This document shows positions 45,097 to 63,122 of a stretch of 64,000 bases of DNA, one piece after another. The notes below the pieces were generated by a model. It searched no databases. It worked only from the letters and a program-made list of their open reading frames with translations, and was not told the DNA's origin. Source of the stretch: Candidatus Tepidifontimicrobium thermophilum. Lineage in GTDB: Bacteria; Sysuimicrobiota; Sysuimicrobiia; Sysuimicrobiales; Sysuimicrobiaceae. The stretch is from assembly GCA_031459915.1 (NCBI GenBank), contig JAVKHO010000003.1, forward strand, positions 122,594 through 186,593, read 5' to 3'. The translations under genes were made by a program, and so were the position numbers. The stretch's first letter is position 1; each line of letters starts with the position of its first letter.

Positions 45097-45128
45097 ACGG
45101 GGCCCGTCGGCCCCAGGGGTACGCTTTC

Positions 45129-45836: not shown

Positions 45837-46618
45837 GGGCGGTCAACGGCGGAGGGCCGGTGTGCCGCATACAGACCGAGGCCCGTAAACGCCAGCCCAC
45901 CCACCACGTTGCCCGCCGTCACCGGAACCTGGTTCCACAGCCACCAGTCCGCCACCGACACCGGGGCTCCGGAGAGCATCCCCGCCGGGATGACAAACAG
46001 GTTCACCACGGAGTGCTCGAACCCCTGGCCGAAGAAGGTGACAATGGGGAGCCACATGGCCGCGATCTTCCCGCCGGTGCTGTGGGAAGTGAAGGAGAGG
46101 ACCACCCCGAGGGTCACCATCCAGTTGCACAGGACGGCCTTGACGAAAGCGGCCCGCAACCCCACCCACCCCAGTTGCGCGTACCCCGCGGTCTTGGCCT
46201 CCGCCACCGTCGCCAGCTGCTGCGCCATGGGGGAACCGGGCCCCATCGTGGCCGCGAACAGCAGCGCGTAGCTTACAGCTCCCAGCAGGTTGCCCAGGAA
46301 CGCCCAGCTCCAGTTGCGGCACAGGTGCGTCCACCTGGCCCGTCCTTCCAGCACCGCCAGGGGCACCAGGGCGAAGTTCCCCGTGACCAGTTCGAGGCCG
46401 AGGAGCACGATCATCACGAACCCTGCGGGGAAGACCAGGGCCCCTGCGAGGGGGATCCGCGTCTGGAGGGTCGCGGTGAAAGCCAGGGTGGTGGCAAAGC
46501 CGAGCAGCGCACCCGACAGGAAACCTCGAAGGACCAGTTCACGGGGCCGCAGCTGCGCTTTCGCGGCCCCAGCCTCCACCATCTGCTGCACCACCGCGTC
46601 CGGCCGCACGTACGACAT
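45815..46618 (-). CDS. Formate/nitrite transporter (NirC-like)
   Basis: GLELVTGNF, GNLLG, LCNWMV, FEHSVVN, GNVVGG; follows nitrite reductase. Confidence 0.9.
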   Translation of the reverse strand: MSYVRPDAVVQQMVEAGAAKAQLRPRELVLRGFLSGALLGFATTLAFTATLQTRIPLAGALVFPAGFVMIVLLGLELVTGNFALVPLAVLEGRARWTHLCRNWSWAFLGNLLGAVSYALLFAATMGPGSPMAQQLATVAEAKTAGYAQLGWVGLRAAFVKAVLCNWMVTLGVVLSFTSHSTGGKIAAMWLPIVTFFGQGFEHSVVNLFVIPAGMLSGAPVSVADWWLWNQVPVTAGNVVGGLAFTGLGLYAAHRPSAVDRPQGGPAA

Positions 46619-46619
46619 G

Positions 46620-48476
46620 TCAGGCTCCCTCCCCCGCGACCACGATGATCCCATCCTGGCCCTCCTGGATGGGGTACGTGCGGAGGTGCAGAGAAGGGTC
46701 GGTCTCGCACCGGCCGGTGCGCAGGCAGAAACGGTAGCCGTGCTCCGGGCAGATGATGTGGGTCCCGTCCACGACGCCCCTGGCGAGAGGCGCCCCCGCG
46801 TGGGGACAGGCGTTCTGCACCGCGTACACCGCCCCCTCGCACCGGAACACCGCCACCTCTTGTCCGTTCACCCGCACGACCCGTGCCCCACTGTCTGGAA
46901 GCTGCGCCAGCGGGACGACGGGCTTTTCCAAGTCCGCTTCGCGGGAGGCGGAGAAGCTGCTTGGGCCGGCCCTCAGCCGCGTGCGCAGCTCCTCGAAGTT
47001 GCCGTACCGCAGGAGGGCCTCGAGGATCGGTTCCAGGGCGTCGCAGGGCACGTCCCCGAGGAGCCTGACCGCCGGGGTGGCGTTGGGCCCGCTGCTGCCG
47101 GCTATGTACACGTCTACCGCCTCTACCACCTCGGTCCCGAGCCGGACCTTCTTGCCCACCAGCCCCACGTCCGCGGCACCGTGGTTGCCGCAGCCTGCCG
47201 GACACCCGGACCAGTGGACGGTGACCGGTCGCGCGACCCGGTCCTGCAACGCCCGGGCGAGGGCCAGGGCTCGCCTCTTCGTGTCGATGAGGGCGAGGTT
47301 GCAGTAATCCGTACCCGTGCAGCTCACCAGGCCCCGAAGGATCGGCGGGGGCGACGGCTGCAGCTCCCGCAGGAGGGGTTCGTCCAGCAGGGCTGCCAAC
47401 CGCTCCTCCGGCACATGGGGGAGGATGGCGTTCTGACTGGTGGTGAACCGGACCTCGCCTGAACCGTAGACCTCGCTCAGCCGCGCGAGCTCCTCGAGCT
47501 GCTCGGCCCGGATGCGGCCGACGGGTACCAGGAGGCCCACCGAGTAATGACCGTCCTGCTTCTGCGGTGTCACGCCCAGGTGGTCGGAATGTGTGGGATG
47601 GCGAGCGTCCCTTCCGGACCGCGGGAGGGGGTGGCCCAGGTACTCCTCCACCGCGGCCCGGAACCGCTCGAGCCCCCACGCGTCCAGCAGGAAGCTCAGC
47701 CGTGCCCTGCTGCGGGCCTCCCGTGGTCCGTGCTCCCGGAACACCGCCACGATGGCGGCGCACACCCCTGGGGCCCCTTCGGGGCTCACGAAGGCGTCCA
47801 GGGGCGAGGCGATCCGGTACCCTCCCGATCCCATCTTCCCGCCCACGAGGATGTTGAACCCGACCTCCCGGTCGCGCACGGCGGGGACCAGGGCCAGGTC
47901 CTGGGTCTCCGCGTGCGTGCAGTTCTCCACGCAGCCGGTGATGGTGACGTTGAACTTGCGGGGCAGGTTCGTGTACGACCGGTTGCCTAGCACCTCTTCC
48001 GTAAAGGCCTTCACCACGGCCGAGGCGTCCAGCAGCTCCGTGCGCACCAGCCCGGCCAGCGGGCACCCCACCACGTTCCGGACGTTGTCCATCCCCGTCT
48101 GGAGGGTGGTGAGCCCCACCCGCTGCAGCTGCGCCAGGATCTCGGGGACCTGCTCGATGCGGATCCACCGGAGCTGGACCTGCTGGCGCGTGGTGATGTC
48201 CGCGATTCCGCGGCCCACCTGCTGGCTGAGGGCGGCGAGTTCCCGGACCTGGTTCGCGGTGGCGATCCCGTTCGGGATGCGGACCCGCAGCATGAAGTAG
48301 CCGGGTTCCCCTTCGCTCTGACGGCGGAGGAAGACGCCCCACCACTTCAGCCGCTCCACGTCCTCCTTGGGGATCGCCTCCCACCCCAGCCGTGCGTACA
48401 GGCGGATGTCGACGTCCAGGCCGTCGCGGACGGTCTTGAGGGCTTCGATGGTGTTCGCCGCACCGTTCCCCGTCAT
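46620..48476 (-). CDS. nirA: Ferredoxin-type assimilatory nitrite reductase with fused C-terminal Rieske [2Fe-2S] domain
   Basis: TTRQQVQ, GMDNVRN, NLPRKFN, SCTGTDYCN, SGCPAGCG; then NACPHAG...CPEHG. Confidence 0.88.
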   Translation of the reverse strand: MTGNGAANTIEALKTVRDGLDVDIRLYARLGWEAIPKEDVERLKWWGVFLRRQSEGEPGYFMLRVRIPNGIATANQVRELAALSQQVGRGIADITTRQQVQLRWIRIEQVPEILAQLQRVGLTTLQTGMDNVRNVVGCPLAGLVRTELLDASAVVKAFTEEVLGNRSYTNLPRKFNVTITGCVENCTHAETQDLALVPAVRDREVGFNILVGGKMGSGGYRIASPLDAFVSPEGAPGVCAAIVAVFREHGPREARSRARLSFLLDAWGLERFRAAVEEYLGHPLPRSGRDARHPTHSDHLGVTPQKQDGHYSVGLLVPVGRIRAEQLEELARLSEVYGSGEVRFTTSQNAILPHVPEERLAALLDEPLLRELQPSPPPILRGLVSCTGTDYCNLALIDTKRRALALARALQDRVARPVTVHWSGCPAGCGNHGAADVGLVGKKVRLGTEVVEAVDVYIAGSSGPNATPAVRLLGDVPCDALEPILEALLRYGNFEELRTRLRAGPSSFSASREADLEKPVVPLAQLPDSGARVVRVNGQEVAVFRCEGAVYAVQNACPHAGAPLARGVVDGTHIICPEHGYRFCLRTGRCETDPSLHLRTYPIQEGQDGIIVVAGEGA

Positions 48477-48750
48477 GGCAACACCTCCGGCGTTTGGGGT
48501 TGTTGGGAACGACGGGGTTCGCGCGGCTACACGGCCGCGTGGCTGGCGTCGGGGCCGAAAACAGTCCGCGGGGAGATGACCGGCGGCCGGGCCGAAGCGG
48601 ACGTCGAGGTCTTGCTAAGTGCGTACGGGATCAGGATCGCGCTTGTCAAGGGGGTTGGACCCGGCGGCTGTGAGAGCAGAGGTCTTCGAACGGAATCCGC
48701 GTCGTGGAGGCCCCGTGGAACCGCAAGGGCTGCTGGAGGTCACCACCCTC

Positions 48751-48779
48751 TTGACGGCTGGCCGGGTGCTCGCTAGAGT
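48751..48779 (+). promoter_or_regulatory. sigma70-type promoter of the sulfate assimilation operon
   Basis: TTGACG-17 nt-TAGAGT. Confidence 0.75.
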
Positions 48780-48800
48780 CTGCGTCAAGGAACCGTAGCC

Positions 48801-48884
48801 ATGCAGCGTCGACTCAACCGTCAGGTTCCGTTCTCTCGCCCTCGCCAGTGCATCTGTCCTGGGCGGGGGGTAGCCCAGGCCTAG
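48801..48884 (+). CDS. Putative cysteine-containing leader peptide MQRRLNRQVPFSRPRQCICPGRGVAQA
   Basis: ATG with AAGGA upstream, between promoter and sat; shares PRxCICPxR with the ORF at 57152. Confidence 0.7.
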   Translation: MQRRLNRQVPFSRPRQCICPGRGVAQA

Positions 48885-48985
48885 CCGGGTCCGGGCTCCT
48901 TCCGCGGCTTCCGGTTTTTCCCTAGCCGTCGTTCCGAGACGAACGTCGCGCCGTGTTGCGCGTGCGCGCACGGGAGGTGTGCTTC

Positions 48986-50155
48986 GTGGTCGCACCCCAC
49001 GGGGGTCGTCTGGTACAGCGCGTGGCGGAAGGCGCTCAGGCCGCGTCCCTGCGGTCGGAGGCCGCGCGGCTGCCTGTGGTGGAGGCCAGTCCCAGGGAGG
49101 CTGCGGACGTGGTCCTGCTGGCCACGGGAGCCTACAGCCCGCTGGAAGGGTTCATGGACCGGGAGACGTACCGGTCGGTCCTGCACACCTTGCACCTGCC
49201 CGACGGGCTCCCGTGGACCCTCCCCGTCACCCTGTCCGTGCCCGCGGACCAGGCGCGCGGGCTCGGACCCGGGAGCCGCGTGTGCGTGCGCGCTCCCGGC
49301 CTGCTGGCGGTGGTGGAGGTGGAGGAGGCGTACCGCCGGGATCTGGAGGAGGAGGCCCGGGCGGTGTTCGGGACCACCGACCGCGCCCATCCGGGCGTGG
49401 CGCGTCTGCTGGGCGAATCCCCGTGGACGGTAGCGGGCCCGGTGTGGCTGGTGGAACGCCCCCGCGGGCGGTTCGCAGATCGAGAGCTGGACCCCGTGCA
49501 GACCCGGGAACTGTTCCAGCGGGCAGGCTGGCGCACGGTCACCGCTTTCCAGACCCGCAACCCCATCCACCGCGCCCACGAGTACCTCCACAAGTGTGCC
49601 CTGGAGACCACGGACGGGTTGTTCCTCCACCCGCTGGTGGGCGAGACGAAGGAGGACGACGTGCCCGCGGAGGTGCGGATGCGGTCGTACGAGGTGCTGC
49701 TGGAGCTGTACTACCCTCGCGATCGCGTGGTGCTGGCCGCGTTCCCGGCCGCCATGCGGTACGCGGGCCCTCGGGAGGCGGTGTTCCACGCCCTCGTGCG
49801 GAAGAACTACGGCTGCACCCACATCCTCATCGGACGGGACCACGCGGGAGTCGGGGGGTTCTACGACCCGTACGCCGCCCACCGGATCTTCGATCGGTTC
49901 GACCCGAGCCGGCTCGGCATCACGCCGGTGTTCTTCGGGGAGGCGTTCTACTGCCGCCGGTGCGACGCCATGGCCACGGATCGCAGCTGCCCGCATCCGC
50001 CGGACGTCCGGGTGAACCCCAGCGGCACGTGGGTGCGGCGGCTGCTCCGGTCCGGCCAGCTGCCGCCGCCGCAGGTGATGCGGCCGGAGGTGGCGCAGGT
50101 GCTGCGGGACCACTTTTTCCGCGGGTCCCCCGAGCTGGCGGAGCAGGCGGGCTGA
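48986..50155 (+). CDS. sat: Sulfate adenylyltransferase (ATP sulfurylase)
   Basis: PHGGRL, SPLEGFM, AFQTRNPIHRAHEY, MRYAGPREA, GRDHAG, Zn site CRRC..CPH. Confidence 0.95.
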   Translation: MVAPHGGRLVQRVAEGAQAASLRSEAARLPVVEASPREAADVVLLATGAYSPLEGFMDRETYRSVLHTLHLPDGLPWTLPVTLSVPADQARGLGPGSRVCVRAPGLLAVVEVEEAYRRDLEEEARAVFGTTDRAHPGVARLLGESPWTVAGPVWLVERPRGRFADRELDPVQTRELFQRAGWRTVTAFQTRNPIHRAHEYLHKCALETTDGLFLHPLVGETKEDDVPAEVRMRSYEVLLELYYPRDRVVLAAFPAAMRYAGPREAVFHALVRKNYGCTHILIGRDHAGVGGFYDPYAAHRIFDRFDPSRLGITPVFFGEAFYCRRCDAMATDRSCPHPPDVRVNPSGTWVRRLLRSGQLPPPQVMRPEVAQVLRDHFFRGSPELAEQAG

Positions 50156-50169
50156 GGGAGGGAGGAACC

Positions 50170-52092
50170 ATGGCGCAGGTGCAGACCGTATCCCAGCCCA
50201 CGTGGGAGGTCGTGCTCAGGCGCAACTCCATCGAGCGGCTCAAGCAGGAGAAGTTCCCCCTCGACATCGTGCACGAGCTGCCGAGCCTGATCGCGCGCGG
50301 CTACGAGGCCATCCCGGAGGAGGACATCGTCCGGCTGAACTGGTGGGGGCTGACCCACGACAAGCCGAAGGTGGGGACCTTCATGGTCCGCATCAAGGTC
50401 CCCGGTGGGCGCATCACGCCGGCGCAGCTGGTGGGGGTCGGCGAGATCGCCCGGCGCTACGGCCGGAACTACGGGGAGCTCACCACCCGGCAGGGAATCC
50501 AGCTCCACTGGGTACGGCTCGAGCAGCTCCCCGAGGTCCTGTCCGCGGTGCAGGCCACGGGGCTCACCACCGTGGGCGGGGAAGGGGATACCGTCCGCAA
50601 CGTGACCAGCTGCCCCGTGGCAGGGGTGGACCGGGACGAGCTGTTCGACGTGCGGCCCGTGGTACAGGCCGTGGCGCAGTTCTTCTACGGCCACCGCGAC
50701 TACTCCAACCTGCCCCGCAAGCACAAGTACACCCTCAGCGCCTGCCCCGCACAGTGCAACGCCCCCGAGATCCACGACGTGGCCCTGGTCGGCGTGGTGA
50801 AGGAGGGGCGGCCGGGGTTTGCGGTGCGGGTGGGCGGAGGGCTTTCCGCCACGCCCCGGATCAGCCGGGACCTGGGCGTGTTCGTGCCCGCGCAGCCCGT
50901 AGACGGTGTGGTGGAGGTGTTGCGGGCCATCACCGACGTCTGGCAGAACGACCTGCGTTACCGCCTCAGCCGCGCGAAGGCGCGGATCAAGTTCCTCGTG
51001 GACGACTACGGACCGGAGGCGGTGCGCGCGATGGTGGAGGCCCGGTTGGGGCGGCGACTGGAGGACGGGCGGGCGCCGGAGCCGGCGCACGACACGGATC
51101 ACCTGGGGATCCACCCCCAGAAGCAGGAGGGCCACGTGTACGTGGGGGTGCCGGTGCCCATGGGCTGGGTCTCCGGCGACCAGCTGGTGGCGCTCGGGGA
51201 GCTGGTGGGTTCCTTCGGCGGGGAAGTCCGATTCACCCGCATGCAGAACCTGATCGTCACCCACGTGCCGGAGGACCGGCTGGAGCAGGTCCTGCAGCAG
51301 CTGGCCCGGATCGGCCTAGATCCGCGCCGGAACCCCGTGTACGGCCGTTCCACCGCGTGCACCGACCACCGCTTCTGCAACTACTCCGTGGCGGAGACCA
51401 AGGGCAAGCTGAGGGAGATCCTCGGGGTGCTGGAGCGGCGGTTCGGCGACGCGGTGGGTGAGCTGCGGATCTACATGGACGGCTGCCCGCACGCCTGCGC
51501 GCACCACTGGGTTGCCGACATCGGCCTACAGGGGACCACCGTGGTGCACCCGGAGCGGGGAGTTCGGGTGGAGGCGTACGACGTGTGCCTTCGGGGCGGG
51601 CTGGGGACGCGGGCGGCCATCGGGAAGCCTTTGATCCGGCGCGTGCCGGAAGACCGCATCGTGGAGGTGGTCTGCCGCCTGGTGGAGGGATGGCTGCGGG
51701 AACGTGCCCGGCGCGGGCAGCTGGCGTTCCGGGACTTCGTGGACGCGCACACCGACGAAGAGCTGCGGGCGCTGGCCATGGGCGAGGCGACCCTGGGGGA
51801 GGAACCGCCCCGGCGTCCCGTGGTCCGGGTGCCCGGGATGCTGCTGGCCTACAGCGGCGGCGCGGACCGGCTGGAGGTGGACGCCCGCACGGTGCGGGAG
51901 GCCCTGGAGGCGCTGCGGGCTCAGTACCCGCAGCTGGTGGCGCAGATTCTGACGCCGGACGGCAACGTGCACCCCAGCGTGAACCTGTTCGTGGGCGAGG
52001 AGGACGTGCGGGGCCTGGGCGGGCTGGACGCCCCTGTGCGCCCCGGAGACGAGCTCACCATCCTGCCCGCGCTGGCGGGCGGCGCGTGCTGA
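50170..52092 (+). CDS. Siroheme sulfite reductase (Sir/NirA family) fused to a C-terminal MoaD/CysO-like ubiquitin-fold domain
   Basis: TTRQGIQ, GDTVRN, NLPRKHK, ACTDHRFCN, DGCPHACA; C-terminal VRVPGML...NLFVGEEDVR...ILPALAGGAC. Confidence 0.88.
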   Translation: MAQVQTVSQPTWEVVLRRNSIERLKQEKFPLDIVHELPSLIARGYEAIPEEDIVRLNWWGLTHDKPKVGTFMVRIKVPGGRITPAQLVGVGEIARRYGRNYGELTTRQGIQLHWVRLEQLPEVLSAVQATGLTTVGGEGDTVRNVTSCPVAGVDRDELFDVRPVVQAVAQFFYGHRDYSNLPRKHKYTLSACPAQCNAPEIHDVALVGVVKEGRPGFAVRVGGGLSATPRISRDLGVFVPAQPVDGVVEVLRAITDVWQNDLRYRLSRAKARIKFLVDDYGPEAVRAMVEARLGRRLEDGRAPEPAHDTDHLGIHPQKQEGHVYVGVPVPMGWVSGDQLVALGELVGSFGGEVRFTRMQNLIVTHVPEDRLEQVLQQLARIGLDPRRNPVYGRSTACTDHRFCNYSVAETKGKLREILGVLERRFGDAVGELRIYMDGCPHACAHHWVADIGLQGTTVVHPERGVRVEAYDVCLRGGLGTRAAIGKPLIRRVPEDRIVEVVCRLVEGWLRERARRGQLAFRDFVDAHTDEELRALAMGEATLGEEPPRRPVVRVPGMLLAYSGGADRLEVDARTVREALEALRAQYPQLVAQILTPDGNVHPSVNLFVGEEDVRGLGGLDAPVRPGDELTILPALAGGAC

Positions 52093-52102
52093 GGAGGAGG
52101 CT

Positions 52103-52906
52103 GTGGCCAGGACGGTTGTCTTCGACGACCTGGAGATCGGCGAGATCGCCGTGGAGCTGGACGACCGGGAGCCCCAGGAGGTGATCGCGTGGGCCCTCGA
52201 GACCTTCGAGGACCGGGTGGCCGTGGTCACGGCCCTGCAGGCGGAGGGGATGGCGATCCTGGACATGGCTACCCGCCTGCGGCGGGACGTGCGGGTGATC
52301 ACGGTGGACACCGGACGCCTGCCCCAGGCCACGTACGCCTTCCTGGACCAGGTCCGCGAGCACTACCCGCACGCGAGGTGGGAGGTGCTCTTTCCCGACC
52401 GCCGGGAGGTGGAGGCCATGGTCCGGCGCCACGGGGCCAATCTGTTCTACCGCTCCGTGCCCCTGCGCCTGCTGTGCTGCCAGGTGCGGAAGGTCCGGCC
52501 CCTGGTCCGGGGCCTGGAGCAGCTGGACGCGTGGATCACCGGGCTGCGCCGGGAGCAGTGGGCTTCAAGGGCCAACATCCGCAAGGTGGAGCTGGACCAC
52601 GACCACGACGGCATCGTGAAGGTCAACCCGCTGGCGGACTGGACCAAGGAGGAGGTGTGGGAGTACCTCCGGTCGCACGGGGTCCCGGTGCACCCCCTGT
52701 ACGCGCAGGGCTACACCAGCATCGGCTGTGACCCGTGCACGCGGCCCATCCAGCCTGGGGAGGACGACCGGGCCGGCCGGTGGTGGTGGGAACAGGGCGC
52801 CCCCAAGGAGTGCGGCATCCACTGCCCCATCGAGACGGGCGGCTTCGAGCACGAGGCCCACGCCATCCTCGGGGAAGCGCACGGGCTGGAGGAGGTCCGG
52901 CAGTGA
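52103..52906 (+). CDS. cysH: APS/PAPS reductase with [4Fe-4S] APS-type cysteine pattern
   Basis: DTGRL, CC..RK, TGLRREQ, GYTSIGCDPC, RAGRW, KECGIH. Confidence 0.92.
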   Translation: MARTVVFDDLEIGEIAVELDDREPQEVIAWALETFEDRVAVVTALQAEGMAILDMATRLRRDVRVITVDTGRLPQATYAFLDQVREHYPHARWEVLFPDRREVEAMVRRHGANLFYRSVPLRLLCCQVRKVRPLVRGLEQLDAWITGLRREQWASRANIRKVELDHDHDGIVKVNPLADWTKEEVWEYLRSHGVPVHPLYAQGYTSIGCDPCTRPIQPGEDDRAGRWWWEQGAPKECGIHCPIETGGFEHEAHAILGEAHGLEEVRQ

Positions 52907-53931
52907 CGGGCGCGGCGGGTCGGTGGGAGCTGAGCGCGGAAGCGGCGGAGCTGGTGGCGCAGGAGGTGCTGGCGCTGGCCCAGATGCTGCCCGAGGCGCA
53001 GCGGGAACGGGCGCTGGCAGCTGCGGAGCGCGTGCGGCGGGGCGAGCTGGCGGAGGACCTGGTGGACGTGGTGGAGTCGGCGGTGGCGCTGTCCCTGCAG
53101 ACGGGCCGGGCGCGACGGCGGTACCGGGCGGAGGGCGAGCGGCTGCTCACCGACGTCCTGTGGAGCACCCCTCGGGGCCAGGCGCTCCAGGCGAGGTTGG
53201 CGGCCACGAACCGGGCGCTGCGCGGGCTGCGGGGCCGGCGGCTCGAGGACGTCCGGGTGAGCGCCCGGACCCTGGGCGACTACACCGTGGCCCTCCGGGC
53301 CGAGGGCCTGACGGTCACCCTGGCGGCGCGGGCCGACGGGGTGGAGGTGGAGAGCGTGTCCGTAGAGGGCGGGCAGAGTGGGAGCCGGGGCGTTTGCGTG
53401 TGGTTCACCGGGCTTTCTGGCGCCGGCAAGAGCACCGTGGCCGAGCTCGTGGCGGAACGCCTCCGCAGCCAGGGCCTGGCGGTGGAGGTCCTGGACGGCG
53501 ACTCGGTCCGACAGCACTTCTCCCGGGGTCTCGGCTTCTCGCGGGAGGACCGGCTGGAGAACGTGCGGCGGGTTGCGTACGTGGCGGGGCTGTTGGTGCG
53601 CCACGGGGTGGTGGTGCTGGTGGCCCTGATCTCCCCGTACCGGGAAGCGCGCGCGCAGGCCCGGCAGATGGTCGGGGACTTCCTGGAAGTCTACGTCCGG
53701 TGCCCGCTGGACGTGCTGGTGGCGCGGGATCCCAAGGGGTTGTACGCGCGGGCCCTGCGGGGCGAGGTTCCCAACTTCACAGGGGTGAGCGACCCGTACG
53801 AGGAGCCCGAGGCCCCGGACCTCGTGGTGGACACCGACCGCGAAACCCCCGAGCACAGCGCAGCTCGGGTGGTGGAGCTGCTGGCCGAGCGTGGCTACGT
53901 GCCGCGGGCGAGCGCAGGGCTGTCGGGATGA
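52903..53931 (+). CDS. cysC: Adenylyl-sulfate kinase with a ~155-aa N-terminal domain of unknown function
   Basis: WFTGLSGAGKST, LDGD, LGFSREDR, ISPY, RDPKGLY, FTGVSDPYE in the C-terminal half. Confidence 0.88.
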   Translation: MTGAAGRWELSAEAAELVAQEVLALAQMLPEAQRERALAAAERVRRGELAEDLVDVVESAVALSLQTGRARRRYRAEGERLLTDVLWSTPRGQALQARLAATNRALRGLRGRRLEDVRVSARTLGDYTVALRAEGLTVTLAARADGVEVESVSVEGGQSGSRGVCVWFTGLSGAGKSTVAELVAERLRSQGLAVEVLDGDSVRQHFSRGLGFSREDRLENVRRVAYVAGLLVRHGVVVLVALISPYREARAQARQMVGDFLEVYVRCPLDVLVARDPKGLYARALRGEVPNFTGVSDPYEEPEAPDLVVDTDRETPEHSAARVVELLAERGYVPRASAGLSG

Positions 53932-54734
53932 GCTGGCGCGTCCTCCTGCTGGAGTCCCGGTGGCCGGAGATCCTGTCGGACCTGGTCCGGCGGCACGGCG
54001 GGGAGCCGGTGTGCGCGCCCGCGGTGGAGGAGGTACCTGCTCCGGCGGAGGAACTGGCGGACCCGCTGGGTCGCCTGTCCTCCGGGAAGGTGGACTGGGC
54101 GGTGTTCCTCACGGGCGTGGGTGTGCAGCGGCTGTATGACGCGGCTCGTGTCCTGGGCATGGCGGAGGCGTTCGTGGAGGCGCTGCGGCGGCTGCCGGTG
54201 GCGGTACGGGGCCCCAAGCCGGTGGCGGTGTTGAGCCGGTGGGGGGTCCGGCCGCAGGTCTCTGCCCCGAGCCCCCACACCACGGCAGAGCTTTGTCAGG
54301 TCCTGCAAGCGGTAGAGCTGCGGGACCAGCGGGTGTTCGTCCAGCACTACGGTGAACCCAACCAGCGGCTTCGCGACTACTTGCTGCGGCGAGGCGCCCA
54401 GGTGGTGGACGCGCTGCCCTACCGCTGGGCGGTGCCTCGCGAGGCCGGGCGGCTGATCGGGGCAGTCCGGGCGCTGGCCGCGGGAGAGGTGGACGCGCTG
54501 GTGGTCACCAGCCGGCCTCAGGTGCTGCACCTCCTCCAGGTGGCGGAGCGGCAAGGGCTGGGTGAGGCGGTCCGGGAGGCCCTCAACGGCCGTGTGGTGG
54601 TGGCCGCGGTGGGTCCCACGAGCCGGGCGACCCTGGAGGATTACGGGATCCGGGTGGCCGTGACTCCGGAGCACCCCAAGATGGCGCCCCTGGTGGCGGC
54701 GCTGGCCGCGCACCGGGGCACGAGGGAGGACTAG
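53928..54734 (+). CDS. hemD: Uroporphyrinogen-III synthase
   Basis: LESR, FLTGVG, RGPKP, QHYG, PYRW, TSRPQV, AVGP. Confidence 0.82.
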   Translation: MSWRVLLLESRWPEILSDLVRRHGGEPVCAPAVEEVPAPAEELADPLGRLSSGKVDWAVFLTGVGVQRLYDAARVLGMAEAFVEALRRLPVAVRGPKPVAVLSRWGVRPQVSAPSPHTTAELCQVLQAVELRDQRVFVQHYGEPNQRLRDYLLRRGAQVVDALPYRWAVPREAGRLIGAVRALAAGEVDALVVTSRPQVLHLLQVAERQGLGEAVREALNGRVVVAAVGPTSRATLEDYGIRVAVTPEHPKMAPLVAALAAHRGTRED

Positions 54735-55366
54735 TGTACTACCCCCTCTTCGTGGACCTCGCAGGCCGTCGTTGCGTGGTCGTGGGCGGCGGCGCCATGG
54801 CCGAGCCCAAGGTGGAAGCGCTGGTGGAGTGCGGCGCAGAGGTGGTGGTCATCAGCCCGCAGGTGACCGAAAAGATCCGGCGCTGGGTCGAGGAGGGCCG
54901 GCTGCGCTGGGAGCCTAGAGCTTACCGTCTCGGAGACCTGGAGGGAGCGTGGCTCGTGGTGTCCGCGCCAGACGACCGGAGCTTGAACAGGGCGGTGTGG
55001 GAAGAAGCCCAGGCGAGGAGGGTCTGGGTGAACGCGGTGGACGACCCCCCGCACTGCAGCTTCATCGCTCCGGCCGTCTACCGTCAGGGCGAGCTGGTGC
55101 TGGCTGTCTCCACCTCCGGAAAGGCGCCCGCGCTGGCGGTGCGGCTGCGGGACCGGTTGGCGGCTCAGCTCGGCCCGGAGTACGCGGCGTTCCTGGAACT
55201 CGCGGCGGAGCTGCGGGGGGAGCTGGTCCGGCGGGTTCCGCAGTTCGAACGCCGCCGCGCCCTGTGGTACCGGATTCTGGACTCCGGGGTGCTGGACGAC
55301 CTTCAGGCAGGCGCGCGCGAGCGGGCCAGGGAGCGGTTCCTCCAGTTGGTGGAGGAGTGGGCGTGA
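54734..55366 (+). CDS. Precorrin-2 dehydrogenase/sirohydrochlorin ferrochelatase (CysG-B/SirC-like)
   Basis: YYPLFVDL, VVGGG, NAVDDP..CSFIAP, STSGKAPALA. Confidence 0.9.
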   Translation: MYYPLFVDLAGRRCVVVGGGAMAEPKVEALVECGAEVVVISPQVTEKIRRWVEEGRLRWEPRAYRLGDLEGAWLVVSAPDDRSLNRAVWEEAQARRVWVNAVDDPPHCSFIAPAVYRQGELVLAVSTSGKAPALAVRLRDRLAAQLGPEYAAFLELAAELRGELVRRVPQFERRRALWYRILDSGVLDDLQAGARERARERFLQLVEEWA

Positions 55367-56127
55367 CCGGGAAGGTGTTCCTGGTGGGCGCGGGGCCCGG
55401 CGACCCCGAGCTCATCACTGTCCGGGGTCTGCGGGTGCTGCGGAGCGCGGACGTGGTGGTGTACGACCGGCTGGTGCACCCGGCTCTGCTGGAGGCAGCA
55501 CCGTCTTCCGCGGAGCGGGTCTTCGCGGGCAAGCACCCTGATGGTCCGCGCGTCGCACAGGACGAGATCGTGCGGCTGCTGGTGGACCGGGCCCGGAGAG
55601 GCCTTCAGGTGGTCCGGCTCAAGGGGGGCGACCCCTTCGTGTTCGGCCGCGGGGGTGAGGAGGTCGAGGCGCTGCGCGCCGCAGGCGTGCCCTACGAGGT
55701 GATCCCGGGCGTCACCGCGGCGGTGGCGGTACCCGCGGCCGCGGAGATCCCGGTCACCCACCGGGCCTACGCCTCGGGCTTCTCGGTGGTCACCGGCCAC
55801 CCCTGCGACGGCGGGACGGGCCTGGACTGGTCGGCCCTGGCCCGCATGCCCACCTTGGTGGTGCTCATGGGGCTGCGCCGGCTGCCCCTGGTGGTGGCAC
55901 GCCTTTTGGACTCCGGTGCCGACCCTTCGGTCCCCGCGGCCATGATCGCGCGCGGTACGCTCCCCGATCAGCGGGTGGTGATGGGGACCCTCGGCACCAT
56001 CGCCCGGAGGGTGGAGGAGGCCGGGCTGCAGCCCCCGGCCACCCTCGTGGTGGGACGGGTGGTGGAGCTGTGCCGTTCGGCCGTGGCGGCCCCGAACCCC
56101 ACGGGCCCGGAAAGGGGTGCGGTGTGA
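55363..56127 (+). CDS. cobA: Uroporphyrinogen-III C-methyltransferase
   Basis: VGAGPGDPELIT, YDRLV, RLKGGDPFVFGRGGEE, PVTHR. Confidence 0.93.
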   Translation: MTGKVFLVGAGPGDPELITVRGLRVLRSADVVVYDRLVHPALLEAAPSSAERVFAGKHPDGPRVAQDEIVRLLVDRARRGLQVVRLKGGDPFVFGRGGEEVEALRAAGVPYEVIPGVTAAVAVPAAAEIPVTHRAYASGFSVVTGHPCDGGTGLDWSALARMPTLVVLMGLRRLPLVVARLLDSGADPSVPAAMIARGTLPDQRVVMGTLGTIARRVEEAGLQPPATLVVGRVVELCRSAVAAPNPTGPERGAV

Positions 56128-56140
56128 GCGAGGAAGCGGC

Positions 56141-56890
56141 ATGCTGGCCCTCCTGGTCCTGCTGGCCTTCGGGGCAGGCTTCCTGGACAGCGCCCTGGGG
56201 ATGGGGTACGGGACCGTGCTCGGTCCGTTGCTCCTGGCCGCGGGGTACCGCCTGCCGGAGGTCGTTCCCGCCTTGTTGCTGTCTCAGGTGATGGCCGGGC
56301 TGGTGGGTGCGCGGTTCCACCACGCCAACGGCAACGCCTCCTTCGCCCGAGACTCCCTTCACCTGCGGGTGGCTGCGGTGCTGGTGGCCGCGGGGCTGGC
56401 GGGAGGGCTGCTGGGCCCCTGGGTGGCGCAGCAGGCGGAAGAGAAACTGTTGCGCGCGTACATGGCGGTGATGATCGTGGGGCTCGGCCTGTGGGTCCTG
56501 GTGGGGCGGACCGCGCGGGAGTTCTCGTGGGCGAGACTGGTGACCCTCGGGGCCGTCGCCTCGGTGAACAAGGCGCTCACGGGGGGTGGCTACGGGCCTT
56601 TGATCGCCGCAGGGCAGATGGTGGCGGGACTGGACCCGAAGGCCTCGGTGGCCATCACGAACCTGGCCGAGGCGGTCGTCTCCCTGGTGGCGGTGGCAAG
56701 CTACGCGTGGTGGTTCTCGGCCTCCTGGCGGTGGGATCTGGTGCTGGCGGTCACCTGCGGCGCGGTGCTGGCGGTTCCCCTGGGCGTGCGGACGGTACGG
56801 CTCGCGGGTGCAGGACGCCTGAGGGGTTGGGTGGCCACCGCCACGGTGTGCCTGGGCCTGGTGGCCTTCGTGTCGGGGCGCGGTGGCTAG
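56141..56890 (+). CDS. TauE/SafE family sulfur-compound transporter
   Basis: DSALGMGYG, GGGYGP; about 8 TM helices. Confidence 0.85.
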   Translation: MLALLVLLAFGAGFLDSALGMGYGTVLGPLLLAAGYRLPEVVPALLLSQVMAGLVGARFHHANGNASFARDSLHLRVAAVLVAAGLAGGLLGPWVAQQAEEKLLRAYMAVMIVGLGLWVLVGRTAREFSWARLVTLGAVASVNKALTGGGYGPLIAAGQMVAGLDPKASVAITNLAEAVVSLVAVASYAWWFSASWRWDLVLAVTCGAVLAVPLGVRTVRLAGAGRLRGWVATATVCLGLVAFVSGRGG

Positions 56891-56964
56891 GCGCAGGTCC
56901 TTGCCTTGTTGTGGCGTTAACGGTGCGGCGCTCCTCGTACGCTACCGGTTGACGTTGCCGGGCC

Positions 56965-57117
56965 GTGCGGACGGGGACGCCGGTGATCCTGGGCGAGGCG
57001 GACGACGGGGCACTGCTCGGGGTGGTGACCCTGGAGACCCCGGGCCTCGTGTTCAACCCGTTCAAGCGAACCCTGAAACCCATGCGGATGCGCTTGGCAC
57101 GGTGGGGTGTCGGTTGA
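56965..57117 (+). pseudogene. Remnant C-terminus of a clan AA (retropepsin-like) aspartyl protease
   Basis: Frame reads TPVILGEADDGALLGVVTLETPGLVFNPFKRTLKPMRM; the N-terminal DTG half is missing. Confidence 0.5.
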
Positions 57118-57142
57118 CGCGTCCGTCGGGGTGTGCTACAAG
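57114..57142 (+). promoter_or_regulatory. sigma70-type promoter of the sulfurtransferase operon
   Basis: TTGACG-17 nt-TACAAG with TG extension; -10 imperfect. Confidence 0.6.
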
Positions 57143-57151
57143 GGGATTGTC

Positions 57152-57232
57152 GTGAAGGGCCTTCGGTACGCACCGCGCAGCTGTATCTGTCCGTGGCGGA
57201 GGCAGGGTCTGCCTTCGCTGCGCCCCTTCTAG
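57152..57232 (+). CDS. Putative cysteine-containing leader peptide MKGLRYAPRSCICPWRRQGLPSLRPF
   Basis: GTG 9 nt after the -10 (near-leaderless); shares PRxCICPxR with the ORF at 48801; strong hairpin 57195-57219. Confidence 0.7.
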   Translation: MKGLRYAPRSCICPWRRQGLPSLRPF

Positions 57233-57343
57233 GTCCCCTGCGAAGCTCACCCTGTCTCCGCTGACCACGGCGGGGATCCGTGCGCTCTCCTGGCGCCGCG
57301 TCCCGCCTATGCACCACAGACCGTGGAACCCGGAGGTGGACGG

Positions 57344-58210
57344 ATGGCTTCGTACGCACGGCCGGACGTTTTGGTGGAGACAGACTGGCTGGCGCAGCGC
57401 CTGGGTGACCCGGGTCTGCGGATCGTGGAGTCCAACGAGGATCCGGAGCTGTACGCGCAGGGGCACATCCCGGGCGCGATCCACATCCGGTGGAAGACCG
57501 ACCTGCAGGACCCCGTGCGCCGGGACTGGGTTTCCCGGGAGCAACTGGAGGACCTGCTGGGGGCGCGGGGCATCGGCAACGCGCACACCATCATCCTGTA
57601 CGGCGACCGGAACAACTGGTTCGCCACCTACACCTTCTGGCTGTTGCAGTACTACGGAGTGGAGAACCTGAAGATCCTGAACGGGGGTCGGCAGAAGTGG
57701 ATCGCGGAGGGCCGCCCCCTGACCACGGAGGTGCCGCAGTACCCACCTGCCCCCTTCCGGGCGAAGGACCCGGATCCCGCCCTGCGAGCGTTCCGGGACG
57801 AGATCCTCCAGCGCTTGCAGGATCCGGCGCTCGCCCTGGTGGACGTCCGCTCCCCGCAGGAATACCGCGGTGAGCTGATCGCGCCGCCCGGGTACCCACA
57901 GGAGGGGGCGCAGCGGCCCGGACACATCCCGCGTGCCGTGAACATTCCCTGGACCCACAACGTCCGGGAGGACGGGACCTTCAAGTCCGCGGAAGAACTG
58001 CGGGCGCTGTACGAGTCGGTGGGGATCACCCCGGACAGGGAGGTGGTCGCGTACTGCCGGATCGGGGAGCGCAGCAGCCTCACCTGGTTTACCTTGAAGG
58101 TCCTGCTGGGTTACCCGAACGTGAAGAACTACGACGGCAGCTGGACCGAGTGGGGCAGCCTCGTGGGCGTCCCCGTGGAGCGCGCTGCAGCGGGCGAGGC
58201 CCAGCCGTAG
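57344..58210 (+). CDS. Tandem-domain rhodanese/thiosulfate sulfurtransferase (CysA2/SseA-like)
   Basis: YARPDVLVETDWL, GHIPGA, DVRSPQEY, YCRIGERSS, YDGSWTEW. Confidence 0.93.
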   Translation: MASYARPDVLVETDWLAQRLGDPGLRIVESNEDPELYAQGHIPGAIHIRWKTDLQDPVRRDWVSREQLEDLLGARGIGNAHTIILYGDRNNWFATYTFWLLQYYGVENLKILNGGRQKWIAEGRPLTTEVPQYPPAPFRAKDPDPALRAFRDEILQRLQDPALALVDVRSPQEYRGELIAPPGYPQEGAQRPGHIPRAVNIPWTHNVREDGTFKSAEELRALYESVGITPDREVVAYCRIGERSSLTWFTLKVLLGYPNVKNYDGSWTEWGSLVGVPVERAAAGEAQP

Positions 58211-58213
58211 GGG

Positions 58214-58666
58214 GTGAAGGGGTTGCAGCGGGTGGACCACAACGCGCTACGGACCAACCAAGCCTGCATCGTGGGCTTCACGGTGCTCGCGTTCCTTCTG
58301 GACCGGTTGTGGCTCGTGGCCGCGGTGGCCCTGGTGCTGCTCGTGGGGACTGCGCATCCACGCCTGGCCCTGTTCCAGCAGGTCTACCATCGGTGGCTGA
58401 AGGGGCGGGTCCTGAAACCGGACGAGCGGGAGGACGACCCTGCGCCTCACCGCTTCGCTCAGGGCATGGGTGGGAGCGTGCTGCTGCTGGCCGCTGTGAG
58501 TCTGTGGGGCGGGTACACGATCCTGGGTTGGTTGCTGGCGTGGCTGGTGGCGGTTCTGGCCGCGGTCAACCTGCTGGCTGGCTTCTGCACAGGGTGCTTT
58601 GTCTTCTACCAGCTCACCCGCCTCGGGGTGATCCGCCGGGGAGGTCCCGCGCACGGAGGGCCGTGA
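58214..58666 (+). CDS. DUF4395 family membrane protein
   Basis: EDDPAPHRFAQGMG, AAVNLLAGFCTGC. Confidence 0.85.
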   Translation: MKGLQRVDHNALRTNQACIVGFTVLAFLLDRLWLVAAVALVLLVGTAHPRLALFQQVYHRWLKGRVLKPDEREDDPAPHRFAQGMGGSVLLLAAVSLWGGYTILGWLLAWLVAVLAAVNLLAGFCTGCFVFYQLTRLGVIRRGGPAHGGP

Positions 58667-59091
58667 TGGAACGGGCGCTGGTGGTCCTGCTGGTGGGCGC
58701 GGCGGTGGCCGCGGGAGCGGCATGGCTACGGTGGCGGGAACGCCGTGTCCGGGCACACGTGCACGTGCCCGGAGGGCCCGCGGTGATCGCCTTCACCCAC
58801 CGGCTGTGCGCGCCGTGTCGTAGCCAGCAGCTCCCGGCCTTAAAGCGCCTGCAGGAGCTCGTAGACTCCCACGTGCGGGTGGAGGTGGTGGACGTGGAGC
58901 GTGACCCGCACCTCGCCCGCCGGTTCGGGGTCTTTACGGTTCCCTCTACCGTAGTGGTCGGGCCGGACGGACGGGTGGTGGCGTTCAACCACGGCTTCGC
59001 GGACGAGGCCAGGCTCCTGCGGCAGCTGGGCCGGACGGGCCCGGAGGGGGTGCCCGACCTTCTTCGGAATCCCGGCCCGGAGGTCACATGA
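58666..59091 (+). CDS. Membrane-anchored thioredoxin-like protein
   Basis: N-terminal TM, FTHRLCAPC, GVFTVPST. Confidence 0.85.
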   Translation: MERALVVLLVGAAVAAGAAWLRWRERRVRAHVHVPGGPAVIAFTHRLCAPCRSQQLPALKRLQELVDSHVRVEVVDVERDPHLARRFGVFTVPSTVVVGPDGRVVAFNHGFADEARLLRQLGRTGPEGVPDLLRNPGPEVT

Positions 59092-59488
59092 CCTGCCGCA
59101 CCTGGTTCCCGGAGTAGCCCACCAGGACCACGAATGCCGCACCGAGAGCCGAGAGGACGAGGATCCACCCGCGCGCGCGGGGCGACTTCCACCGGACCGC
59201 TAGGTTCGCCGCGTACAGGGCGGTAGTGACGTAGGCGAGCGTGCTGTGGACGGTGTGGCGGGCCAGGAAGGCGCTGCCCACCCCCTCCCGCTGGAGGCGG
59301 GCGAAGTCGTAGAAGGCCGTGGCCAGCACCACGGGTGCCGCCAGCAGGCCCAGAGCGACCAGCCAGGTGCCCGTGGACCGGTACAGTTCCGTGGGTCTGC
59401 GCCAGTACAGGACGTCGAACAGCAAGGCGGTGATCCACAGGGCGATGGGGAAGTCGGTAACGGGCGCGTGGAACAGGTAGCCGACCAT
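59084..59488 (-). CDS. DUF2231-like membrane protein
   Basis: HAPVTDFPIALW, H..LA, VGYSG; GGAGGAG RBS. Confidence 0.75.
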   Translation of the reverse strand: MVGYLFHAPVTDFPIALWITALLFDVLYWRRPTELYRSTGTWLVALGLLAAPVVLATAFYDFARLQREGVGSAFLARHTVHSTLAYVTTALYAANLAVRWKSPRARGWILVLSALGAAFVVLVGYSGNQVRQVM

Positions 59489-59648
59489 AGCTCCTCCTGC
59501 GTGGGTGCTGGGGAAACTCTTTCGCCGTGCCCCGCCTCGGACCCCTGCCCGCCGCGTTGTACCGGGCGGGGGCCTTGTGTAGAATGCGGGCGAACGGCAC
59601 CACAGGCCTGCAAGGTACGCGGCACCGGAAAGCCGCTCCGGAGGGGAG

Positions 59649-61085
59649 ATGGAGGCCAAGGCGTGGGTCCGGGAGATCCCCCGAAAGCAGGACAACCTGT
59701 CCGACTGGTATACCGCGGTCCTGCTGAAGGCGGAAATGGTGGACTACTCGCCGGTCCGGGGCTGCATGGTCATCCGGCCCTACGGCTGGGCCGTCTGGGA
59801 GGCTATCCAGCGGTGGCTCGATGCGGAGTTCCGGCGTACGGGCCATCAGACCGCGGCCTTCCCCCTGTTCGTGCCCGAGTCCCTGCTGCGCCGGGAGGCG
59901 GAGCACGTCCAGGGGTTTGCCCCGCAGGTGGCGTGGGTCACCCAAGGGGGAGATGAGGAGCTCGCAGAGCGCCTGGCCGTCCGGCCCACCTCCGAGGCCA
60001 TCATCATGCCCATGTACGCCCGGTGGATCCGCTCGTACCGCGACCTGCCCGTCCTCATCCTGCAGTGGTGCAGCGTGGTGCGGTGGGAGAAGGCCACCCG
60101 ACCGTTCCTGCGCACCACGGAGTTCTTCTGGCACGAGGGGCACACCGCCCACCGCACCGCGGAGGAGGCGGATGCGGAGTGCCGGCTCATCCTGGACATC
60201 TACCGGCGCCTGCTGGAGGAGCAGCTGGCGATGCCGGTCCTGGTGGGCCGCAAGCCCGCCAGCGAGAAGTTCGCCGGCGCGGACTGGACCTATACCCTGG
60301 AGGCCCTCATGCCGGACGGACAGGCCATCCAGGCGGGTACGTCCCACTTCCTCGGCCAGAACTTCGCCCGCGCCTTCGAGGTGAAGTTCCTCGACCGGGA
60401 CAACACGGAGAAGTACGTGTGGACCACCTCCTGGGCGGTCACCACGCGGCTGGTGGGCGCCCTGGTGATGGCCCACGGGGACGACCGGGGTCTGTTCCTG
60501 CCGCCCCGGGTGGCGCCCGTCCAGGTGGTCGTGGTACCGGTGCGTGCGGAACGGGAGCCCGCGGTGCTGGACCGAGCCCGCAGGATCACGGCGCAACTTG
60601 GGGAGCGGTTCCGGGTCAAGCTGGACGACCGGGAGGAGTACACACCTGGGTGGAAGTTCAACGAGTGGGAGATGCGGGGGGTACCCCTGCGGGTGGAGCT
60701 GGGACCCCGGGACCTGCAGCAGGGCCAAGCGGTGTTGGTCCCCCGGGACGCGGAAGGGGCTCGGCAGGCGGTCCCGCTGGACGCCGTGGTGGAGCGAGTG
60801 GGTGCAGAGCTGGAGGCCATCCAGTCCCGTATGCTGGACCGCGCCCGAAAGTACCTGGCGGACCACACGGTCCGGGCCCGCGAGTACGGGGAGGCGGTGG
60901 AGCTGATCCGCCAGCGCCGGGGCTTCGTGGGGGTGCTGTGGTGCGGGCAGAGCTCCTGCGAGGATCGGCTGCGGGGGGAAACGGGAGGCTCTCCCCGCGT
61001 GATCCCGGAGGAGGCGGTGGAGGGAAGCTGCCTGGTATGCGGAAGACCGGCCACCGCCCTGGTGTACTTCGCTCGCGCATACTGA
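59649..61085 (+). CDS. proS: Proline--tRNA ligase (eukaryote/archaeal-like form)
   Basis: YSPVRGC, RPTSE, FLRTTEFFWHEGH, QAGTSHFLGQNF, C-terminal FARAY. Confidence 0.95.
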   Translation: MEAKAWVREIPRKQDNLSDWYTAVLLKAEMVDYSPVRGCMVIRPYGWAVWEAIQRWLDAEFRRTGHQTAAFPLFVPESLLRREAEHVQGFAPQVAWVTQGGDEELAERLAVRPTSEAIIMPMYARWIRSYRDLPVLILQWCSVVRWEKATRPFLRTTEFFWHEGHTAHRTAEEADAECRLILDIYRRLLEEQLAMPVLVGRKPASEKFAGADWTYTLEALMPDGQAIQAGTSHFLGQNFARAFEVKFLDRDNTEKYVWTTSWAVTTRLVGALVMAHGDDRGLFLPPRVAPVQVVVVPVRAEREPAVLDRARRITAQLGERFRVKLDDREEYTPGWKFNEWEMRGVPLRVELGPRDLQQGQAVLVPRDAEGARQAVPLDAVVERVGAELEAIQSRMLDRARKYLADHTVRAREYGEAVELIRQRRGFVGVLWCGQSSCEDRLRGETGGSPRVIPEEAVEGSCLVCGRPATALVYFARAY

Positions 61086-61119
61086 ATGGAGAAGCCATCT
61101 CGCTTGGGGGAGGGGAACC

Positions 61120-63096: not shown

Positions 63097-63122
63097 GTGC
63101 CATCCCCTTCCGTGGCTGGGGG

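Follow-up and report, generated by a model that had tools for sequence, protein, structure and literature searches.

Two small open reading frames (ORFs) within a 64,000-nt stretch of Candidatus Tepidifontimicrobium thermophilum (contig JAVKHO010000003.1, positions 122,594–186,593; this whole stretch is the window, and its numbering is used for coordinates) belong to a family of leaders that is conserved in two phyla. The fixed parts of these leaders are the tripeptide Cys-Ile-Cys (CIC), the codon for its second Cys, which is the rare UGU, and a hairpin arm that starts at +12 or +13, counted from the first base of the Ile codon. The family is probably a cysteine-sensing, ribosome-mediated attenuator which stalls when cysteine is scarce and which is repeated before sulfur-supply operons. 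A first-pass annotation of the sequence had noticed the two ORFs with their shared core, and both were located exactly where it had placed them (48801–48884 and 57152–57232). That annotation mentioned neither the UGU constraint on the second Cys nor the constant distance to the hairpin.

The two leaders and their distribution

The elements of the two leaders in the window are as follows.

48751–48779, + strand: promoter-like site of leader 1, TTGACG-17-TAGAGT, sigma-70-type (promoter scan)
48801–48884, + strand: leader ORF 1, 27 codons, containing RPRQCICPGR; ATG start 21 nt past the -10 box
48840–48860, + strand: PRQ-CIC-P codons of leader 1; Cys-Ile-Cys core at 48849–48857, second Cys TGT
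48863–48905, + strand: leader 1 hairpin, arm A 48863–48869 with 48898–48905 (predicted fold; family-wide partner test)
48884–48919, + strand: imperfect terminator-like alternative hairpin with five T, containing the arm A partner
57114–57142, + strand: promoter-like site of leader 2, TTGACG-17-TACAAG (read directly from the sequence)
57152–57232, + strand: leader ORF 2, 26 codons, containing APRSCICPWR; GTG start 9 nt past the -10 box
57173–57193, + strand: PRS-CIC-P codons of leader 2; Cys-Ile-Cys core at 57182–57190
57192–57222, + strand: leader 2 hairpin, arm A 57196–57202 with near partner B 57212–57218 (predicted fold)
57240–57261, + strand: alternative partners in leader 2, 57240–57245 with B and 57252–57261 with arm A (predicted folds)
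57332–57351, + strand: rhodanese ribosome-binding region; 57338–57345 is complementary to the leader Ile-Cys-Pro codons

The site at 48751–48779 was the sole promoter-like site called by the scanner within 48400–58000 (0.2 expected in shuffles), and promoter-like sites occupy the equivalent place before leader 1 in relatives. The first-pass annotation had assigned a TTGACG-17-TA promoter to each leader; both sequences are present, but that of leader 2 does not pass the scanner's rule. The orthologues of leader 2 carry the promoter-like TTGACA-17-TACAAA/TAAAAG. Transcription starts are predicted here and not mapped. Leader ORF 1 has orthologues at loci L032, L033, L057 and L151, and the orthologues of leader ORF 2 at L030 and L058 start with ATG. 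The exact peptides of both leaders, that of leader 2 as translated from GTG, were absent from a collection of 15 billion proteins. Two assembled RNA contigs from one study (X1 and X2) begin inside leader 2, at 57191 and 57171, and run into the rhodanese gene; they are uninformative on start, strand and level, the raw-read runs gave 2 and 0 reads, and they were not used as evidence.

PRxCICP with the nucleotides TGYATCTGTCC occurred five times in the 2.6 Mb genome, which is no chance result: in every case a promoter-like site lies upstream and a sulfur-related gene follows. The three leaders outside the window precede tusA (contig C4), a MoeB/ThiF-rhodanese gene (C5) and an NMT1/SsuA-like ABC transporter (C32). 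The genome holds 18 TGY-ATH-TGY sites, and the hairpin arm was found at the five leaders only. Using reversed-pattern controls as background, 80 matches to TGYATCTGTCC were obtained in 41 related genomes against 2 controls. Across the phylum, PRxCICP gave 155 matches in 77 of 94 genomes (7 controls), and a pattern of CIC and the hairpin arm that made no demand on PR or Pro gave 161 matches in 74 of 94 (10 controls), with up to five leaders per genome in relatives. As these genomes are related, counts across them are not independent; the phylum tallies include the unpublished genomes G023 and G060 (source of L008 and L092), and no claim depends on those alone. The proposal of a distinct two-Cys leader family heading a sulfur regulon is borne out by these counts and by the codon-level conservation described below.

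The search suggested by the annotation, for the motif upstream of sulfur genes in this genome and its relatives, was also run from the gene side. Among 47 genomes with the DUF4395 family, 27 of the 30 best DUF4395 loci have PRxCIC upstream; two of the other three lack a leader, and in the third this stretch is fused with the sat operon. The first gene was assigned at 83 loci and was a rhodanese (21), a RimK-like ATP-grasp protein (17), DUF4395 (16), MoeB (11), TusA (8), an NMT1-like binding protein (5) or sat (5). Further targets seen were a YeeE-type transporter, sulfite reductase, DsrE, a Cys/Met PLP enzyme, peptide ABC components and SBP56. The targets are mostly genes of sulfur uptake, reduction and transfer.

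The named records that carry the element (Ca. Sysuimicrobium, Fervidifonticultor, Geohabitans, Thermofontivivens, CSP1-3 and similar) belong to Sysuimicrobiota. A scan of GTDB was performed with PR, ATC-TGT and Pro all fixed, so lineages bearing variants may escape it. Among the matches listed, 66 of 120 loci had a hairpin and an in-frame start; of the remaining 54, 51 had no hairpin and three were real or truncated leaders (L162, L185, L216). One record of Limnochordales was among the matches listed. In its family, 5 of 7 genomes together have nine leader-like loci, whose downstream genes encode a rhodanese, sulfite reductase, an NMT1-like binding protein and an SDF symporter, the last of which presumably resembles the cystine transporter TcyP, although no family call supported this. 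Class-wide, the Limnochordia search was at background overall (95 genomes, 13 matches vs 16 controls), with four real loci. In 201 genomes of the phylum of Limnochordia, 19 matches vs 10 controls were obtained and inspection found none that was new and had leader features, while 401 genomes from the phylum of an Actinopolyspora record (L155) were at background (2 matches vs 2 controls) and viral contigs gave 0 matches. Matches of the GTDB scan in Bryobacterales, Rhodococcus, Marinobacter and other phyla were rejected as chance, as none of the 66 loci with both a hairpin and an in-frame start bore the name of such a phylum.

Conservation of the core and geometry of the hairpin

Codons and frames were compared in 120 non-redundant PRxCICP matches, a set that includes a few chance matches and 22 GTDB loci added by eye. 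An in-frame open start was present in 99 of the 101 loci with a promoter-like site, compared with 14 and 21 in the other frames, and ATG occurred 98 times in the motif frame vs 2 and 16. Synonymous codons were used for Pro (CCG 49, CCC 44, CCT 25, CCA 2), for Arg (CGG 45, CGC 44, CGT 16, CGA 13, AGG 2) and for the first Cys (TGC 97, TGT 23). The annotation had proposed a synonymous-site test; the conservation is at the codon level and not at the nucleotide level only, and no test that could be computed came out against the proposal. The second Cys is TGT in 115 of 120 matches, and TGT makes up about 16% of Cys codons in this genome, as computed on script-picked ORFs. With PR and Pro free, TGT was present in 141 of 150 among the matches listed; the nine with TGC equal the control count, and neither of the two that were fetched is a leader.

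The Ile between the two Cys is not replaced: middle codons that do not start with A gave 10 matches vs 9 controls in the 94 genomes, and all 13 non-Ile matches that were examined lacked the architecture of a leader. Since ATC accounts for 94% of Ile codons in the genome, this conservation is not assignable to either the peptide or the RNA. The flanking residues are less strict. Six of the 27 gene-first DUF4395 leaders have a residue other than Pro after CIC. Among 35 non-Pro matches listed, 20 were fetched and 17 of these were leader-like; the residue at this position was L, R, S, T, A or C (L, R, S, F, T, A or C over all sets). PR does not occupy its usual position in eleven CIC loci, nine of which have an in-frame start. 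Tyr, Phe or His stands two residues before PR in 62 of 120 matches; the segment before PR spans 3–28 codons and shows no conservation, and that after CIC-P spans 0–25 codons in nearly all leaders. Two offsets occur for the conserved arm GCGRRGG (88 and 17 of 120), so that it encodes different residues, a stop codon falls within it in three loci, and three loci stop right after CICP. The two offsets and the internal stops imply that the arm is conserved as RNA and not as peptide. The earlier idea of a sequence-specific arrest peptide that needs PR..CIC-P is not supported in that form, as PR and Pro are each replaceable and the residues after CIC-P come from the hairpin arm.

Relative to the -10 box, the start of the leader lies within 8 nt in 18 of 101 loci, at 9–14 nt in 51 and further away in 29, and 3 have none. 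A cmscan of 44000–64000 against Rfam returned three matches to unrelated eukaryotic families (E ~2–4, far below gathering scores), and no T-box or SAM riboswitch covariance model matched in this interval. Variants with a third Cys (CICIC, CICC, CCIC) occur at L270 (G005:C86), L380 and L387, and in the latter two the extra Cys is adjacent. L251 and L266 have CIC and the arm behind a promoter-like site and no in-frame start, being decayed leaders or assembly errors; at L039, L042 and L293 a different hairpin stands in for the usual arm or an insertion displaces it, which makes them useful natural controls.

A perfect 7-bp partner lies within 43 nt of arm A in 104 of 108 loci, compared with 24.5% in shuffles. 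With the first base of Ile as +1, the arm core starts at +12 or +13, and the first paired base of the stem lies at +8 to +12 in 104 of 104 loci, never later; the stems are mostly 7–12 bp. A GC hairpin directly after each ORF had been proposed. In both window leaders the hairpin instead begins within the ORF, 5 nt past the second Cys codon, and it is strong in leader 2 (z -3.6; 0 of 200 shuffles equally stable), whereas the leader 1 region folds no better than shuffles (z -1.15). According to PMC7282821, the ribosome channel accommodates 11 nt counted from the P-site codon, and certain stem-loops placed at 11–12 nt slow A-site tRNA binding; a ribosome waiting on UGU, with its mRNA entry site at +12/+13, would thus abut the intact hairpin. 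A programmed frameshift, considered because of this layout of codon and hairpin, was set aside by reasoning only, as no re-pairing of tRNA-Ile and tRNA-Cys in a shifted frame is apparent.

Mutually exclusive hairpins that overlap the footprint of the control codons are present in the predicted folds. In leader 1, the 48884–48919 fold contains the arm A partner and therefore excludes the leader 1 hairpin, and vice versa; a terminator scan did not pick it up. The sat leaders, which come from one family of close relatives, all have a T-run behind an imperfect hairpin (5 of 5; 0.7 expected), and its frequency in non-sat loci, 10 of 78 vs about 8 expected, is background. A far partner of arm A like that of leader 2 is also present in 40 of 108 loci, and C exceeds G in the spacer in 74 of 83.

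The opening of the ribosome-binding site was modelled at 83 loci with an 11-nt footprint at 55 °C, with 249 shuffled leaders as control. In the predictions, the site is about 1.3 kcal/mol easier to open with a ribosome at either Cys, and the gain is gone (near baseline) two codons past the second Cys. The shift between UGU in the A site and four codons later was +1.12 kcal/mol vs +0.05 in the shuffled leaders. For leader 2, the opening values were 9.0 with the RNA free, 6.3 at UGU and 13.7 four codons later, and 57338–57345 is paired with the leader Ile-Cys-Pro codons in the predicted ribosome-free fold. A duplex of 8–13 bp joins the CIC codons to the ribosome-binding site in 7 of 8 loci of one ATP-grasp subgroup, compared with 8.5% of 956 control sites. 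This pairing is clear in leader 2, and duplex lengths over all 83 loci are close to control. An earlier footprint of 15 nt, later set to 11 nt following PMC7282821, had placed the opening minimum at the first Cys and not at the second.

Proposed mechanism and alternative explanations

In the proposed attenuator, the short ORF near the promoter would be translated first. When Cys-tRNA is scarce, the ribosome would wait with UGU in the A site, a codon expected to be read by wobble by the single tRNA-Cys(GCA) of the genome, and the hairpin abutting the mRNA entry channel may prolong this wait. The waiting ribosome would cover the PRx-CIC codons, otherwise free to pair with the downstream ribosome-binding site, and would leave the hairpin intact, so that the anti-Shine-Dalgarno-like or terminator strand is held and the operon is ON. 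With ample cysteine, the ribosome would proceed, melt arm A and vacate the CIC codons; in leader 2 and most loci the strands set free would then occlude the ribosome-binding site, in leader 1 (sat) they would fold into a terminator-like hairpin, and the operon would be OFF. Rho, which the genome encodes, may add polarity. We infer the steps from stall to switch from predicted folds, and they depend on the footprint chosen. The predicted direction, ON when cysteine is short, fits the targets, and the fixed UGU together with the fixed hairpin spacing points to decoding kinetics plus RNA structure.

Several observations weigh against this mechanism. The core has only two Cys codons, which are non-adjacent in the window ORFs and across the family, and codon starvation does not account for the invariant Ile and the favoured PR. 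The folding shift is modest and uneven, being positive in 50 and negative in 20 of 83 loci; the tusA (8 loci) and sat (5 loci) groups do not show it, in the ATP-grasp and moeB groups it is weak after ribosome passage, and leader 1 showed no ribosome-binding-site switch in folding. In these calculations gene starts were script-picked, the loci are related and the footprint length was altered after the first result. Formal covariation in a plain 20-sequence alignment gave 84% paired, with 421 of 500 shuffles as high, and pairing as a general reason for UGU was not supported, a complement being present in 57 of 120 vs 48 expected. Targets of the RimK-like ATP-grasp, beta-carbonic anhydrase, OsmC-like and URO-D-like types have no clear sulfur role. 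The cysO-cysM-mec-rrf2 operon on contig C10 had no CIC leader site when checked; the leaders hence seem to govern sulfur supply and not the last step of the pathway. The host organisms are described as uncultured in PMC11604079.

The wobble-read Cys codon, the peptidyl-Ile and the entry-channel hairpin stand in one register, and it is possible, if on balance doubtful, that stem-loop and nascent chain jointly compete with Cys-tRNA. If true, this would be a regulatory use of stem-loop A-site inhibition, so far shown for frameshift signals; it would give sensitivity without codon repetition, in a portable module found at up to five operons per genome and in two phyla. A contribution of the peptide is possible because Ile is invariant and PR strongly favoured. 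We consider it unlikely, however, that the leader is primarily a nascent-peptide sensor narrowed to CIC, in which (Y/F)x-PR-x-C-I-C acts on the ribosome or on a ligand (free cysteine, sulfide or persulfide, or a metal) and arrests or releases translation, with the same RNA switch as readout. The invariant Ile would suit such a sensor, as would the retention of PR through synonymous codons including AGG and across two phyla, the aromatic or His residue before PR and the three loci that end right after CICP; a precedent exists in CruR, where CXXC senses copper and relieves RAPP arrest (PMC9426467). On the other hand, PR and the last Pro are each dispensable, the N-terminal part is unconserved, the prevalence of ATC weakens the case from Ile, at the predicted stall the chain would hold the first Cys only, and the fixed UGU is a nucleotide-level constraint beyond what a peptide imposes.

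That same constraint could be met by UGYAUCUGU plus the hairpin acting as an RNA element for a protein or ligand, with the ORF incidental or merely melting or exposing it. Nine nucleotides are almost invariant, including a synonymous position, and the spacing to the hairpin is fixed, but the strict start-codon frame bias, the confinement of variation to synonymous positions, the match of the conserved codons to the pathway end product and the lack of a meaningful Rfam score make this explanation quite improbable. The five copies per genome of a plausible CxC thiol pair might instead be read as thiol- or metal-binding peptides that act in trans and are co-expressed with sulfur genes; we give this very little credence, as nothing is conserved beyond the core, the C-terminal part is set by the hairpin and read in two frames, and the position is always between promoter and first gene. 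Least credible of all is a DNA operator for a transcription factor of the sulfur regulon. A short invariant core near promoters and two Rrf2-family regulators encoded in the genome would be compatible with it, but the frame bias and synonymous variation argue against an operator, and the core is not palindromic and is always on the transcribed strand, ~25–100 nt away from the -10 box; it shares its frame with a start codon and is tied to an RNA hairpin.

Related systems and gene neighbourhoods

Classical attenuators of the trpL, hisL and leuL type have codons for the end product in a leader ORF and mutually exclusive hairpins. The CIC leaders share both features, and sat leader 1 also has a terminator-like fold with a T-run; unlike the classical cases, the T-run is at background outside sat, and most loci look translational. 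The introduction of Canestrari et al. (10.1101/834739) also summarises classical amino-acid attenuators, and that work describes mycobacterial polycysteine leaderless short-ORF attenuators (Ms5788A/Rv0815A), termed the Cys ribulon. As in this system, the short ORF comes first in the transcript at several loci per genome, the targets overlap (a cysA2-type rhodanese operon, sulfur and cysteine genes) and the predicted state upon ribosome stall is ON; as in Ms5788A, Cys codons are able to pair with the downstream Shine-Dalgarno region, here in leader 2 and one ATP-grasp subgroup, with duplex lengths close to control over the 83 loci as a whole. In contrast to the criterion of at least two consecutive Cys in that paper, the CIC core has none consecutive. 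One tripeptide and codon choice is common to all loci, whereas the Cys ribulon consists of independently evolved short ORFs, and the CIC family has a conserved hairpin at a fixed distance, occurs in other phyla and is mostly not leaderless, 18 of 101 starting within 8 nt of the -10 box.

The Cys-codon short ORFs reported before cysteine genes in 2005 (PMC1262725) resemble the CIC leaders in mostly having no intrinsic terminator and in a C-rich spacer, and Rho was proposed for them. They are described with Cys runs near the stop and no conserved hairpin, whereas in the CIC leaders the two Cys are spaced, the tail varies and the hairpin is conserved. With CruR (PMC9426467), the family shares a Cys pair and conserved Pro/Arg in a regulatory upstream ORF; CruR, by contrast, is a DUF2946 protein of full size that carries CXXC and has RAPP at its C-terminus, and the leaders have 10–50 codons and no RAPP-like motif. 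The stem-loop position resembles that of the dnaX and HIV frameshift stem-loops, 11–12 nt after the first base of the P-site codon (PMC7282821), and a specific stem-loop length and structure are needed there (PMC8861025). Unlike at those frameshift signals, no slippery sequence is apparent here, and pausing by the stems of the CIC leaders is a prediction only.

TnaC and the RAPP/RAGP peptides are ligand-responsive arrest peptides. The synonymous variation at Pro, Arg and the first Cys fits amino-acid-dependent arrest, but the invariant UGU at the second Cys does not, and, unlike the RAPP/CruR type, the CIC leaders have dispensable Pro/Arg and no invariant arrest motif with a required Pro. Literature searches, which covered few subscription papers, returned no description of a CIC leader; the short-ORF lists of 10.1101/834739 lay outside the comparison. 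The available text of PMC11604079 has no mention of cysteine, leader or riboswitch, and that of PMC4833913 none of cysteine. The new features are the invariance of the Ile, the use of UGU and the register of the hairpin, while the working mode resembles that of the mycobacterial Cys ribulon. The leaders offer a candidate for sulfur-supply control in a widespread soil and hot-spring phylum, and a compact design, a module of ~60 nt, to be added to the few known cysteine-sensing leaders. They raise the question of the minimum number of sensing codons in a ribosome-based sensor, and of whether downstream RNA structure may compensate for codon number. As a regulon tag, the motif would connect DUF4395, the RimK-like ATP-grasp protein (17 of 83) and the NMT1/SsuA-like ABC transporter to cysteine status, and likewise the OsmC-like and URO-D-like proteins and the SDF symporter.

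Downstream of the two window leaders, the genes agree with the sulfur operons that had been listed (sat to tauE, and rhodanese-DUF4395-thioredoxin).

48986–50155, + strand: sat, ATP sulfurylase; probable GTG start, Shine-Dalgarno-like site 48972–48977
50152–52092, + strand: sulfite reductase with a C-terminal ThiS/CysO-like sulfur-carrier domain (protein family match)
52103–52906, + strand: cysH, PAPS/APS reductase
52735–53931, + strand: ORF holding cysC, APS kinase; true start probably near 52900
53928–54734, + strand: HemD, siroheme synthesis
54734–55366, + strand: CysG-type dehydrogenase/chelatase, siroheme synthesis
55363–56127, + strand: tetrapyrrole methylase, siroheme synthesis
56117–56890, + strand: TauE/SafE family membrane protein
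57344–58210, + strand: two-domain rhodanese (thiosulfate/3-mercaptopyruvate sulfurtransferase type)
58214–58666, + strand: DUF4395 membrane protein
58663–59091, + strand: thioredoxin-like protein

The sulfur-carrier domain of the sulfite reductase at 50152–52092 has a tail at its C-terminus that contains GG. This domain, the leader-controlled moeB (C5) and cysO-cysM-mec (C10) together suggest carrier-based cysteine synthesis. The C10 operon (G000:C10:2936-6559, L362) has the order cysO, an unknown 286-aa protein, a cysM-type synthase, JAB/Mec and an Rrf2 regulator; its cysM is broken by an assembly gap of Ns, with no visible mutation. On the minus strand at 45815–48476, a nitrite/sulfite reductase with a Rieske domain and a formate/nitrite transporter are transcribed away from leader 1, and no CIC leader precedes these genes. 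At L294 (G001:C10), sulfite reductase sequence is fused to the pre-rhodanese region and ~7 kb including leader 2 is gone, through deletion or misassembly. ARAGORN made two tRNA-Sec calls in the genome (G000).

The RimK-like ATP-grasp ligase, of unknown function, is among the commonest first genes (L009, L014, L023, L036, L083, L085 and others); as a guess, it may make a cysteine-containing or gamma-glutamyl compound. At L034 (G035:C1:1199200-1203700) and L074, two CIC leaders lie ~1.3–1.5 kb apart on opposite strands, and these opposed leaders head an ATP-grasp gene and a gene for an ABC binding protein.

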